Part shown: positions 50,101 through 56,100 of the stretch, piece by piece
Numbering within the stretch: position 1 is the first letter of the stretch
How the letters are laid out: each line of letters opens with the position of its first letter
From: an uncultured Candidatus Binatia bacterium
Lineage (GTDB): Bacteria > Desulfobacterota > Binatia > UBA9968 > JAJDTQ01
Length of the DNA: 64,000 nt
Reading direction: 5' to 3'
Assembly (NCBI GenBank): GCA_965204235.1
Contig: OZ241979.1
Location: forward strand, 2,530,216 to 2,594,215
Program-made: the position numbers

Positions 50101-53100
50101 GCGGGCCCTCGTGGTCAGCGACCCGGAGGCGCTGTTCACGCAGCGGGAGCTGGACGCCCCCGCGGCGGGCGCGGCCGCGAGCTTTCGCAAGAAGGCCCCC
50201 GAGCCCAGGCCCAGCCTTCCCCAGTGACCGGACGCCGCCGCCGCCCTTTCCGGGCGGACGCGGCGGGACCCCGGCGCCTGCGCCGGGTCCGTTTCGGGTC
50301 TTCGGGCGGTTAGCTCAGTTGGGAGAGCATCGGCCTTACAAGCCGGGGGTCACAGGTTCAAGTCCTGTACCGCCCATCGTTTCCCCTGCCCGGCCCGGCT
50401 CCCGGGGTTGCAATCGCGTCCGATAACCGTTATGTTCCTCATTCGCACGGGGCCGTAGTTCAGCTGGTTAGAACGCCGGCCTGTCACGCCGGAGGTCGCG
50501 AGTTCGAGTCTCGTCGGCCCCGCCAAGCGATGCTCGGACGCCAAGCAGCAACATGCGCACGGTTCAGATGACGAAGGCGGAGTCGCTGGCTCAGCGGCGG
50601 TGGTACATCGTCGATGCCGAGGGCAAGGTCCTCGGACGGATGGCCACCGAGATCGCCAGGGTCCTGCGCGGCAAGCACAAGCCGTCCTTCAGCCCGCACG
50701 TGGACGCGGGTGATTTCGTCATAGTGGTGAACGCCAAGCGGGTCAAGGTGACCGGGGCGAAGGAAAGCGACAAGCGCTACTACCGCCACACCGGCTATCC
50801 GGGAGGACTGCGGGTGGCGCGCCTGTCCGAGGTGCGGGCCAGGAAACCGGAGGCGGTGGTGCGGTTGGCGGTGAAAGGCATGCTTCCCAGGAACCGGCTC
50901 GGGAGAGGCCAGCTCGGCAAGCTGAAGGTTTACGGGGGGCCGGAGCACCCGCACGGAGCGCAGTTGCCCGAGCCGCTCGCCATCGCAGGGTAGAGATCGA
51001 CGTCATGGCGGACGAGTCCATCTTTTGCGCGACGGGCAGACGGAAGACTTCGGTGGCGCGGATCTACCTGAAGCGCGGCAAGGGCGACATCCGCATCAAC
51101 GACCGGGTGCTGGAAGACTATTTCGGTCGTGAGACCGCCAGGATGATCGTCCGGCAGCCCTTCCACGTGACCCGCACCCTGGGGGACTACGACATCGTCG
51201 TGAACGTCAAGGGCGGCGGGAGTTCCGGCCAGGCCGGCGCCATCCGGCACGGGATCACCCGGGCGCTGATGCAAGTGGATCAGGGCTTCCGCGCTCCGTT
51301 GAAGAAGGCGGGTTACGTCACCCGCGACCCCCGGGCGGTGGAGCGCAAGAAGTACGGCAAACACAAGGCGCGGAAGCGGCCGCAGTTCTCCAAGCGCTGA
51401 CTGGAGACCGGAAGGGCGACGGAGGAAGGAAGAGACCCAGTGAGGTCGGGATCCCCCGAACGATGATCGAGAGGATCCGGGTACACGACGTCGGACCGAT
51501 CCGTGAGGCCGATGTCCGCTTTGGAGACCTGACGGTGTTCGTGGGTCCTCAAGCCACCGGCAAGAGCATCCTCCTCCAACTCATCAAGCTGCTCTTGGAC
51601 AAGCACGCCATACACGCAACACTCGGACACTTCAGCATCGAATGGGGCTCGAACCTGAAGGCGTTTCTCGAACTCTACTTTGGCGAGGGCATGTCCTCGC
51701 TGTGGAACGGGAAGCAGAGCCGCTTGATTTCCGGCAAAGCAAAGAATGCGCTGAGGTTCGAGAGCTACGCCAGACGCCGGCCCTCCAAACCGAAAGACGA
51801 AGAAGCGACGGCCTTCTACGTTCCGGCGCAACGAGTCATGAGTCTGCGCGACGGCATGACGCGCCCGTTTACCGACTACAAGGTCGGCGACCCTTTCGTG
51901 CTGCGCGATTTCAGTGAACGACTCCACCAACTCGTACAGAACGAGTTCCACTTGAACAAGGGACTGTTTCCGCAGAAGAACCGACTGAACGATACGCTGA
52001 GAAAGCCGCTGGAAGAGCATATATTCGGCGGATTCGAACTGCGGACCGATTCCTCCGGATATCAAAGCCGTCTGACCCTCGGGCGGGAGACCGACGACGC
52101 CTTCCCCTATCTTGTGTGGTCGGCCGGGCAACGCGAGTTCGTACCGATGCTCCTTGGCCTCTACTGGCTCCTGCCGCCATCGAGGATACCACGCCGGAAC
52201 GAACTGCAATGGGTCATTGTCGAGGAACCGGAAATGGGTCTCCACCCGAACGGGATCGCCGCTGTCATCAACCTCATCCTGGAACTACGATTGCGCGGAT
52301 ACCGCATCTTCGCCTCTACCCACTCGCCCCACGTTCTCGACATCGTCTGGGCACTGCGGTTTCTCCGAAAGAACGGCGGTACGGAGAGGGACGTGCTGCG
52401 TCTGCTCGGCCTCGATGCGGCGCCGAGTGCGAAGAACCTTGCGGAGAAGGCGTTGGAGAGCGATCTGAAGACCTACTATTTTTCTCGTGACGGAACGGTC
52501 AGGGACATATCCAACCTCGATCCCGGTGCAGACGACACCACCGAAGCCGGCTGGGGCGGTTTGACGAGTTCTCCGGCAAGGTAGGGGACGTCGTGGCGGA
52601 AGTCGCCGCCCGGAACGCAGTGGACAGGCCGTGAATTTCAGAGACGCGGCGAACGCCGCACCGGCGGCGGTTGGCCGAACCTGTCGTCCCGGGAAAGGGG
52701 CGATCGAGGGCAGGCATCGCAATCGGGTGGATTGTGGTTCTACACGGAGGCTCACCGGAAGCATCGCCCTGGATGCGGCGCTCGCACGGCAACCCCCCTA
52801 TTCCCGTCAACCGCGTTGGGATTACGGTCTCGGTTACGAACCGCCGCAAGGCTCGGAACGCGCCATCTGGATCGAGGTCCATCCGGCCGCCACGTCGAAC
52901 GTCAAGGAAGTCGTCGATAAGTTGAACTGGTTACGGAATTGGCTGAGGAACGAGGCATCCGACCTTGAACTCATGAGCAGAGCCGCCCCCAACGTTCCGT
53001 CTTACGGAACCTCTGATCAATTCTGGATCGAGGCGCCTTTCCCTATGGAAAGGCGCGTCCTTCGACTTCGCTTCGCTACGCTCAGGACGAACGGGGGCGA

Positions 53101-56100
53101 TTGTTCAGAGTTTCCTTACGTCTGGATTGCGACGAGTGGAGTCCCTATTCCCCGCAACTCCCCGCAGGCCCGAAAGCTCAATGAATACGGTTTGAGGATG
53201 CCTGTCGAACTGCTTCGGTTGCCGTGACCCGGGCCATGAAGAACATGGGTTTAACACCCGTCTGTTTGTGCCCCCCCCCCCCCCGAAGAATCGGGCGGGG
53301 CTAGAGGTAGCCGCCGCTCCCTGACCTTTGGCGGCAGCGCCGCCCGCCTTCGCTCCGCGCTTGCCGCTTTCGTCCTTGCCTTGGCCGCGGTGGCGCCCGC
53401 GCCGGCGGCGCAGACCGTCACCCTATCCGTCAGCGGCAACTGCGGCGGCACCCCGGCCAACTGCGGCACCGCCGGCAACCGCAACGGCGACCGGGACACT
53501 GCTTGGCCGGGCCTACAGGTGGACGAGGGGGACGTTTCTCCGTCAGTGTGTTATTTGATCAAAGCATAGGTGTTGGGAAAATATTGGCCTTTACATATTC
53601 GGTGTCTGGTAGTGCTTGGTTGTCGCTCGACCTCGCCTTTCGCTCCGGCACTGTACTTGGCACTGGAGGGACTCTCCTATATAACCATACCAACACTTCA
53701 CCAATAGCGGTTTCTGAGTACGCAGTGACCAGTGACAATGCCGTGGAAGGTGATGAGACTGTCACTTTCGGTATTGCCAGCATAACGAGTGCCGACACAA
53801 GCGGTTTCACTATCGGCACCCCGTCTTCGGCCACCGTCATCATCCGCGGCACCGACTCCGCCCCGTCCTTCGGCTCCGGCTCCGTCTCCGCCAAGACCTT
53901 CACCGCCGGCGCCGCCATCACCGAGTTCACTGTGCCGGCCGCCACCGGCGGCAACGGAACCATCACATACGCCGCCTCCACCCTGCCGGCGGGCCTCCGC
54001 TTCGACGCCACCGGCACGGACATGGACGGCTGCCCGGGCACCGAGGCCCGCGAGGTCTGCGGCACCCCCACCACGGCCGCCGCCGCCCAGACGGTCACCA
54101 TCACCGCCACCGACGCGGACTCCAACACCATGAACACGGACCGCGCCACCCTCACCTTCTCCGTCACCGTGAACGCCGGCGCAACCCTCGCCTCCAATCC
54201 CACGTCCCTCACCGAGTCCAACCTCGACAGCGCGATGCTCACCGTCACCCTGCCCAGCGGCTTCACCTTCGCCGCCGGCGTCACCGCCACGAGCTTCGAG
54301 CTCGTCACCAGCCCGGCCATCGCCGGCCTCTCCATCAGCACCGTCAGCGACGGCGCAACGGGAACCACCGCTGCCACCCTGACGCTGGCCGCCGGCGCCG
54401 GCTACGGCTTCGACGCCGCTTCGACCTTGGCGGTGAAGGTGCTGGCCGCGGCGCACTCGGGTTCCAGCGACCTCACCACCGGAACGCTCCCGGTGGCGCC
54501 GAGCGCACCACCGGGCGTGACCGTCTCCCGAACGAGCCTGTCGCTCGACGAGGATCCGGGCGCGGACGACGCCAACCAAGGGACGTACACGCTGGTTCTG
54601 AACAGCGCCCCCGTCGGCTGCGCCGCCGGCGTGGGCGTCTCCGTGGCGAGCGGCAACCCGGACGTGGAGGCGGACCCCACCGCGCTGACCTTCACGGCCA
54701 CCACCTGGAACACGCCGCAGACGGTGACTGTCACCGCCGGGCAGGACGACGACGGCGAGGACGACCGCGCCACCATCCGCCACGCGGTCACGACCGCCTG
54801 CGACGCCGCCGGCTACCCAACCACCCTCGCCAGCGCCAGCGTCCAGGTGACTGTGGCCGACGACGAAGCCCCGCCGGTGGACGCTGACCGTCGGCTGGAC
54901 TTCGGGGAGGCGCGTGCGCCAGCGCAGCGCTACGTGCAGGGTAAGGAGATCGAACCCCTCAGGCTGCCTGCGGCCCGGGGCGGGGACCCGCCGCTGACCT
55001 ATGGGCTCTCCCCGGCCCTGCCCGAGGGCTTGGTCTGGACTCCACCCGGAGATGAAACGACCGGCGGGACCATCGCGGGCACGCCTGCGGTCGCCACGCC
55101 TGCGGTGGTCCATACCCTGACGGTGACGGATGCGGACGGGGACACCGCCACGCTGGCGTTCACCTTGGAAGTAGTGGCGGACGCGCAGCCCACCTTCGGC
55201 CCGGCCCGGGTGTCGGCGCAGCGCTACGTGCAGGGGGTGGAGGCGGCGCCGCTCACGCTGCCTGCGGCGACCGGGGGCAACCCGCCGCTGGCCTACACGC
55301 TCTCCCCGGCCCTGCCCGAGGGCCTGGTCTGGACTCCGCCCGAGGAGGAAACCACCGGGGGGACGGTGGCGGGCACGCCTGCGGTGGTGCAGGGGCCGGT
55401 GCGTTACACGCTGAAGGCGCGGGATGCGGACGGCGACACTGCGGAGTTGCGCTTCACTCTGGAGGTGGTGGACCGGTTGGTGGCGCGCATGGAGGGGGTG
55501 CACGAGGCCATACTGCCGGAACTCTCCCGGGCCATGGTCGCAGGGACGGTGGAGGCAGTGGCCGGGCGCATCGGGCGGGCGCTGGACGGGTCTGCGCCTT
55601 CGGATGAGTCTGCTGCGTGGGCCGAGGCGCTGGCGGTCATGGCCGCAAGAGGGTGGAAGGAGGGACTCGGGGGTCGGAGCTTCGCCCTGGGGCTGGCGGG
55701 GGATGAGGCCCCAGTGGGGTCGGAGGTGACGGTGTGGGGAGCGGGAGAGTACCGGAGCCTGTCGGGGGGCGACGCAGTGGCGTGGGACGGAGACCTGTTC
55801 GGCGCGCACCTGGGGGTGGACAGGCGGTTTGGGGTCGGGGGAGTGGCCGGGCTTGCGCTGTCGGTGAGTTCCGGACGGTTCGACTACACCGACCGCAGCC
55901 TCCTGGTCCGGGGCGGGGCGGTGGAGGGTGTGTACGAGAGCCGGATGACGGGCGCGCATCCCTACTTGGGATGGGCCTGGGGGGAGGGACGACATGCATG
56001 GGCGTCGTTGGGGATGGGGCGTGGAAGGGTGGTGGTGTCCGACGGGGAGGCAGGTCGGCGGAAGAGCGCGAGCACCATGGGCAGCGCAGCGTTGGGTGGC

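Follow-up and report, generated by a model that had tools for sequence, protein, structure and literature searches.

A probably decaying copy of the phage-defence candidate PDC-M56 downstream of rpsI in an uncultured Binatia bacterium

Two adjacent open reading frames (ORFs) lie directly 3' of rplM-rpsI in a 64,000-nucleotide stretch of an uncultured Candidatus Binatia bacterium (contig OZ241979.1, positions 2,530,216 to 2,594,215; the whole stretch is called the window here), and they raise the question of what such a pair does at this site and in what state it is. An earlier note on this DNA had read them as a candidate two-gene defence module, possibly decaying, consisting of an ABC-type ATPase and an uncharacterised partner. 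We confirmed the coordinates and placement of both ORFs, here termed gene A and gene B, and the proposal of a two-gene candidate was borne out by paired matches to PDC-M56A and PDC-M56B and by a conserved adjacent partner. The locus is an additional, decaying member of an already catalogued candidate family. Taken as a whole, we lean slightly towards the statement that this is an ATPase plus nuclease candidate cassette, inactivated here by a miniature inverted-repeat transposable element (MITE) and a frameshift.

51463-52584, + strand: gene A (PDC-M56A), 373 amino acids (aa) as encoded; OLD/AriA-like ABC ATPase, Pfam AAA_21/AAA_15
52631-53227, + strand: gene B (PDC-M56B), 198 aa here; the 160-aa family protein plus an in-frame 38-codon insertion
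51402-53234, + strand: whole cassette, the extent of homology with the copy in contig L001

Family identity and linkage of the gene pair

Judged by its profile matches, the locus almost certainly belongs to the PADLOC family PDC-M56. Gene A matches the PDC-M56A model with E=1.3e-136 and 453.6 bits (residues 3-369 on profile positions 2-365 of 382), the unmatched end of the profile being accounted for by the frameshifted tail of A, and gene B matches PDC-M56B with E=5.1e-36 in two stretches parted by the MITE. PDC stands for "phage defence candidate", a set of 145 proposed cassettes that are candidates only and that were selected because at least one member lies within a BREX, DISARM or type I restriction-modification (RM) locus (Payne et al., bioRxiv 10.1101/2024.01.29.577857). 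There, PDC-M56 is cassette CAS_00181, FAM_00005>>FAM_02395, with a listed count of 47 (bioRxiv 10.1101/2024.01.29.577857). FAM_00005 is a broad ABC-ATPase family that is also the source of HEC-01, PDC-M07 and PDC-M55. A full-text literature search for PDC-M56 gave no paper, the only mention being one line of a supplementary table.

Gene A contains the complete ABC motif set, with Walker A GPQATGKS (residues 28-35), Q-loop PAQR (121-124), signature SAGQ (220-223), Walker B VIVEEPE (251-257) and H-loop STHSP (285-289). The ABC motifs of the 373-aa ATPase described earlier are thus present, while its length is that of a truncated form: relatives have 382-395 aa, and all 31 members of A's 90% cluster have 390-395 aa. 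In Pfam, A matches AAA_21 (E=1.8e-17) and also AAA_15, and its sole sequence match in the PDB is the OLD-family nuclease 6p74 (E=7e-8). The next-best PADLOC ATPase models (AriA, NsnB, HEC-01A, Old, GajA and MAD3) give E values over 100 orders of magnitude weaker, and the weaker PADLOC models are mostly limited to the Walker regions; the strongest partial matches are to defence ATPases, namely AriA, MAD3, the retron Eco8 effector and OLD. No NCBIfam family scored above its cut-off, with all matches at or below 45 bits against cut-offs of 200-3000 and confined to the Walker motifs. A housekeeping identity as ABC transporter, RecN, RecF or SMC was rejected, since no curated cut-off was reached (RecN 18 bits against 408), and clustering with housekeeping ABC proteins, which the earlier note had set against its own proposal, was not seen. 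An in-frame length polymorphism occurs within A at window position 51782, where contig L085 carries 15 bp and contig L087 12 bp more than the window. The additional bases form a CGCCGGCC(C/A)TCCAAA-like repeat; they fall in a basic part of A's Insert 1 that is poorly conserved, and give rise to variants of 395 aa (L085) and 394 aa (L087).

Scanning one genome per species with a profile of B gave 79 loci, distributed over Alpha- and Gammaproteobacteria, Terriglobia, Thermodesulfobacteriota, Binatia, Verrucomicrobiota, Planctomycetota, Armatimonadota, Chloroflexota and Myxococcota. Many are from metagenome-assembled genomes, and many of the genomes we take to be sponge-associated, going by the names of the bins. 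A homologue of A lies immediately upstream of B on the same strand in 80/81 loci, the exception ending at a contig edge, so that the linkage of A and B is strict. The stop codon of A and the start codon of B overlap as (A/G)TGA in 68/84 loci, indicating that the two genes are likely to be translationally coupled. The ratio of non-synonymous to synonymous substitution rates (dN/dS) among intact alleles is 0.16 for A and 0.26 for B, indicating purifying selection on both. Clustering of the flanks of 81 loci revealed no conserved third gene (at most 7 loci per cluster, close relatives only), and no defence-island context was found in the Pfam-annotated neighbourhoods, which contain mostly housekeeping genes or insertion sequence (IS) elements.

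Individual neighbourhoods hold accessory genes. A WYL regulator (HTH_11/WYL/WCX), a HIRAN-domain protein and a 212-aa uncharacterised protein (L001 3509-5747) lie 1-3 kb upstream of the L001 cassette; WYL regulators are associated with defence loci. In L085, where the island behind rpsI is short, A-B is followed by a SocA/Panacea antitoxin-domain gene (L085 8219-8686; PF13274, E=3e-22), this domain being characteristic of accessory loci of the toxin-antitoxin or defence type.

The predicted fold of gene B

Gene B belongs to a large family of about 1,200 clusters at 50% identity. A profile search against 1.84 billion representatives recovered 1,208 clusters at E<=1e-3 and 898 at E<=1e-10, almost all of them stand-alone proteins of 145-180 aa, and the 148 homologues in a 90%-clustered database are nearly all exactly 160 aa long. 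The alternative that the downstream ORF is conserved nowhere can therefore be dismissed. By the same token, the novel effector envisaged in the earlier note is not unique to this locus; it is one member of a widespread family with a predicted PD-(D/E)xK-like fold. Two rare types of longer B-domain protein were encountered: P0157 (389 aa) looks like a fragment of A joined to B via a deletion, and P0213 (274 aa) combines the B domain with an unrelated Ala-rich N-terminal region containing a possible signal or transmembrane segment.

At the sequence level the earlier observation that B has no recognisable nuclease motif stood, as neither the window protein nor 117 family members matched any Pfam family at E values up to 10; no NCBIfam family was above its cut-off and no PDB relative emerged from a profile search. 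The predicted fold, by contrast, is nuclease-like. The model of B (predicted local distance difference test score, pLDDT, 95) is PD-(D/E)xK restriction-endonuclease-like, with an alpha-beta-beta-beta-alpha-beta core. Foldseek comparison with the PDB and BFVD gave only weak matches (E > 0.05), which were of the nuclease class with BamHI at the top. Across 268 members D64 and H84 are invariant, E82 is present in 266/268 and K97 in 266/266, S44, W63, Y65 and W127 are almost invariant and D48 is near-absolute too. In the model, D64 is at the N-terminus of beta2, E82-x-H84 is in beta3 and K97 is on the following helix. Since D64 and E82-x-H84 occupy the places of the canonical PD...(D/E)xK motif, we assigned B as a PD-(D/E)xK-fold protein with a variant D...ExH...K candidate site, in which the third residue is the invariant His84 and not the Lys of canonical (D/E)xK. 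By this model B would be catalytically active and cleave a substrate. The set Tyr65/His84/Lys97, as read from the alignment, would also be compatible with metal-independent RNase chemistry of the kind used by the tRNA-splicing endonuclease; if that were true, the cassette would be a tRNA- or RNA-targeting abortive system like PARIS.

Lesions in the window copy and the state of its relatives

Both genes in the window carry lesions that are absent from intact sibling contigs, in line with the earlier suggestion that the module may be decaying. The window copy is in all likelihood inactivated, to judge from the following features.

53006-53115, + strand: MITE, 110 bp, with 16-bp terminal inverted repeats (TIRs) GGAACCTCTGATCAAT and ATTGTTCAGAGTTTCC
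53002-53005, + strand: left TTAC target-site duplication (TSD); the empty site in contig L097 is CCGTCTTACGTCTGG
53116-53119, + strand: right TTAC TSD
52565-52566, + strand: 1-bp deletion, ACGGAG to ACGAG, within the conserved GWGGLTEFS motif of A
52566-52634, + strand: orphaned last 22 codons of A, EFSGKVGDVVAEVAARNAVDRP followed by TGA, readable in the +1 frame and recovered as the second tblastn high-scoring segment pair

The MITE and its TTAC duplication together amount to 114 bp and insert 38 extra codons (residues 126-163) into B without a stop, immediately before core strand beta4 and the invariant W127. An AlphaFold2 (AF2) prediction of the MITE-bearing B renders the insert as a low-confidence disordered loop and retains the core fold, which does not by itself establish function. 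The site is free of the MITE in L082, L084, L085, L087, L097 and L001. The earlier note had recognised a dispersed repeat here and taken it for the 3' third of the ORF; the repeat is real, whereas its placement is internal, covering only codons 126-163 of 198. We ruled out that it forms the 3' end of B, as the last 35 codons align with the conserved C-terminus of the family. The same TIRs flank a 1.2-kb DUF772/DDE_Tnp_1 transposase gene in contig L083, which identifies the MITE as a non-autonomous derivative of an IS5-family IS. Further full or partial copies are present in the window at 30057-30186 (-), 43653-43739 (+) and 34807-34851 (+), and outside it at L001 13386-13499 and L096 ~4823-4913. 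Common to the family are the core GCGCGTCCTTCGACTTCGCTTCGCTACGCTCAGGACGAACGGGG and, internally, the hairpin GCGCCTTTCC-CTAT-GGAAAGGCGC; in the copy at ~30.1 kb the CTTCGCTACGCTCAGGA unit is internally duplicated.

The deletion in A is shown by DNA alignment against L001, L002 and all conspecific contigs that cover the site. It hits the sequence GWGGLTEFSGxVGDxVAxVAxR, so that SSPAR takes the place of the last 22 residues, a C-terminal tail that is 90-99% conserved among 77 distinct A sequences. The TGA of the orphaned tail overlaps the GTG start of B as GTGA, and with the loss of this A/B overlap the frameshift uncouples A from B. A programmed frameshift was ruled out, because the additional G and one continuous ORF are present in every relative covering the site. 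The window has only two private 1-bp indels in the 8 kb shared with its conspecifics, both deletions of a G from GG. The second is at 50433 (TTATGG to TTATG, against six conspecific contigs), between tRNA-Val and tRNA-Asp.

For the population comparison, conspecific contigs were chosen by identical RpsI or Lon. An exact-sequence look-up found no identical copy of the window's A or B on record. The states of the site are as follows.

L086: empty site; rpsI, ~35 bp, lptG, with window position 51401 joined to 58527
L082, L084, L085, L087, L097: A intact (390-395 aa), B intact (160 aa), GTGA overlap
L083: IS elements interrupt A at window position 52022
L096 (independent sample): A intact; B carrying the MITE at the identical position, its C-terminus put out of frame by a 5-bp slippage deletion
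L001: cassette (window 51402-53234) at 93% identity in another genomic context

The cassette thus shows presence/absence polymorphism within one population. Two independent secondary lesions are found on the MITE haplotype, the loss of 5 bp from B in L096 and the frameshift of A in the window, which suggests that selection was relaxed after inactivation by the MITE. In L083, a 4.06-Mb conspecific contig, an IS nest (6459-12396) occupies the post-rpsI site and cuts A at about codon 186; it is composed of a DDE_3/IS630-like fragment, an IS5-family DUF772/DDE_Tnp_1 element and two more DDE_3 transposases.

The cassette is horizontally acquired, and forms the first segment of a variable island between rpsI and lptG. 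The GC content of 51463-53227 is 59.7% compared with 67.5% for the whole window, and GC at third codon positions is 74% in A and 68% in B compared with 95% in lon, 88% in rplM and 89% in rpsI. The surrounding features are listed below.

47765-50227: lon, upstream neighbour on the rplM-rpsI side, with the two tRNA genes between
50304-50376: tRNA-Val
50449-50525: tRNA-Asp
50553-50993: rplM, upstream of rpsI
51005-51400: rpsI, directly upstream of the cassette
51402-51462, + strand: 61-bp cassette leader, kept in the L001 copy despite the other genomic context; homology with L001 begins at 51402
53245-53261, + strand: terminator-like hairpin with a T-rich tail just 3' of B, weak in a consensus scan and with a count not above shuffled expectation
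51402-58526: variable island of ~7.1 kb, the rpsI-lptG interval; the blastn alignment of L086 stops at 51401 and restarts at 58527
58531-59892, - strand: lptG, on the far side of the island

The cassette homology with L001 ends at ~53234, near the hairpin behind B, and the consensus terminator scan gave no convincing terminator at the boundary between rpsI and the cassette. Beyond the cassette, the island in the window contains an autotransporter-like gene and unannotatable ORFs, with no further recognisable defence gene. This gene, a 1095-aa ORF at 53503-56790, and its large paralogue at ~13100-16084 are ~92% identical over long stretches, have repetitive N-terminal regions and give a weak Autotransporter beta-domain match (PF03797, E=1.5e-4, under the gathering score). 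Its length varies by strain (1082, 1183 and 1095 aa), and it is absent from L085 and L086. A poly-C tract of 14 C (53271-53284) lies ~220 bp upstream of it, and further tracts are present at 12894-12911 (18 C) and 61851-61869 (19 C), the former within a paralogous upstream region (12894-13160) that is 87% identical. The first tract differs between contigs, with 11 C in L087, 14 in the window and L096, 15 in L082, 18 in L097 and 23 in L084. It could be a phase-variable contingency locus, or homopolymer assembly noise.

Proposed mechanism, rival explanations and known systems

The mechanism is modelled on PARIS, Gabija, Septu, OLD and chiefly HEC-02: A would be a soluble OLD/AriA-type ABC ATPase acting as an ATP-dependent sensor or gate, and B a minimal 160-aa PD-(D/E)xK-fold effector with S44/D48/D64/E82-x-H84/K97, translationally coupled to A. 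A would keep the nuclease B inactive until an infection cue alters the ATP cycle of A; released B would then cut nucleic acid and stop the phage, possibly at the expense of the cell. The surface with which A contacts B may be its conserved C-terminal extension. Defence function, nuclease activity and gating by A are all drawn from these analogues, and we consider it marginally the better supposition that PDC-M56 is a real ATPase-gated nuclease defence system. In the window, the MITE would first have put 38 codons before beta4 of B, and the later 1-bp deletion would have taken the 22-residue C-terminus of A together with the coupling. A broader view, in which PDC-M56 is a widespread anti-phage system and B founds a minimal PD-(D/E)xK-fold nuclease family with a D...ExH...K site, gated via the GWGGLTEFS tail of A, is a tentative one that we hold to be possible but rather doubtful.

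Three rivals were considered, none of which is favoured by the evidence. It is unlikely that the window cassette is still functional, with the 38-residue segment tolerated as a surface loop and the deletion in A a sequencing or assembly error. The inserted segment measures exactly 114 bp without a stop, and AF2 keeps the core fold of B; however, this MITE and its TSD always add a number of bases divisible by 3, a run of 38 codons without a stop is nothing unusual at 67% GC, and the insertion point directly abuts beta4 and W127. All ATPase motifs of A are intact. Weighing against inactivation, too, the deletion in A removes one G of a GG pair, as does the only other private indel, so that a sequencing error is possible for the frameshift. 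On the other hand, no other coding gene of the shared 8 kb contains an indel, and L096, of the same MITE haplotype, is independently frameshifted in B, suggesting that selection was already relaxed.

We likewise regard as improbable that the pair is not an immune system and serves instead as a selfish addiction or toxin-antitoxin-like module, or as an accessory to DNA repair or recombination (SbcCD, RecN/RecF-type). The cassette usually stands alone among housekeeping genes outside defence islands, the Pfam name of AAA_21 mentions the AbiEii toxin, A has a weak N-terminal RecN match and the SocA/Panacea gene adjoins the cassette in L085. However, the repair and transport matches in NCBIfam fall on the Walker motifs far under their cut-offs, the best partial matches are to defence ATPases, and the family was first recognised inside BREX, DISARM or type I RM loci. 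Its patchy distribution, being present, absent or disrupted within one population, argues against a core role in repair. That B is instead an inactive PD-(D/E)xK-fold adaptor or DNA-binding subunit, with a complex acting by binding, occlusion or a recruited nuclease encoded elsewhere, is very unlikely: 268 divergent members conserve D64, E82, H84, K97, S44 and D48 almost absolutely, as is typical of active sites, and no third partner gene is conserved. Against it, too, active PD-(D/E)xK enzymes such as BamHI and BglII are known to have a variant third residue (E or Q).

By itself, the locus is an ordinary decaying accessory cassette. What the analysis adds is a predicted effector fold with a candidate site, the size and breadth of the family, the strict A-B linkage and a population record of gain, maintenance and decay. 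The second gene of PDC-M56, so far without annotation, gains a proposed mechanism and candidate catalytic residues, and the family is large and phylogenetically broad, often standing solo outside defence islands, where island-based discovery would miss it. One population documents the life cycle of a cassette, from acquisition at a post-rpsI hotspot through purifying selection to inactivation by MITE or IS and secondary frameshifts. Its allelic series comprises absent, intact, in-frame MITE, MITE plus frameshift, A tail deletion and IS-disrupted states; if PDC-M56 were validated, the intact and damaged sibling alleles would be natural positive and negative controls.

AbiL/RloAB, PARIS and Septu, which the earlier note had named as systems built on this ATPase family, turned out to be analogues only, because the RloB/DUF4276, AriB/DUF4435 and PtuB-type HNH partners are absent. 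AbiL/RloAB membership was ruled out, with 0/117 B members matching the RloB/DUF4276-type Pfam family at E up to 10. Septu, Gabija and OLD share the ABC ATPase clade, and the Old and GajA models match the region of A from Walker B to the H-loop; unlike these systems, A has no fused TOPRIM and B no HNH domain or UvrD-type helicase. Septu was excluded by the NCBIfam PtuA score of 13.4 bits against a cut-off of 500 and the lack of an HNH signal in B, and Gabija by the absent partner domain and the partial ATPase match. In PARIS, an ATPase scaffold frees a nuclease once the trigger binds (PMC11464382). PARIS resembles the cassette in its two-gene ATPase plus nuclease design, and AriA is the best non-PDC model for A (E=2e-18), whereas B is not a DUF4435/TOPRIM protein and the family form of A has 390 aa compared with the 53-55 kDa reported for AriA. 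Membership was rejected, as AriA models match A in two short stretches (2e-18 and 2e-15) and AriB is not matched. The nuclease domains of Can2/Card1 and Cap4, PD-(D/E)xK effectors activated by cyclic oligoadenylate (cOA) or in CBASS, are 8-10% identical to B; they are fused to CARF or SAVED sensors, whereas B is stand-alone and paired with an ATPase.

HEC-02, a validated system of an ABC ATPase and a NERD-domain protein in which both genes are required, has the same layout, in which a small PD-(D/E)xK-superfamily protein comes after a free-standing ABC ATPase of the defence type. It differs in that HEC-02A matches A only at ~4e-10 via common ABC motifs, and that B has no NERD (Pfam) signal and a D...ExH...K motif instead of (D/E/Q)xK; HEC-02 membership was ruled out on these grounds. 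PDC-M56 itself fits both window proteins, which match its hidden Markov models nearly end to end, in the same order and adjacent to each other. Compared with that entry, a bioinformatic candidate without domain annotation for its second gene, the window copy differs in that B bears a MITE and A is frameshifted.

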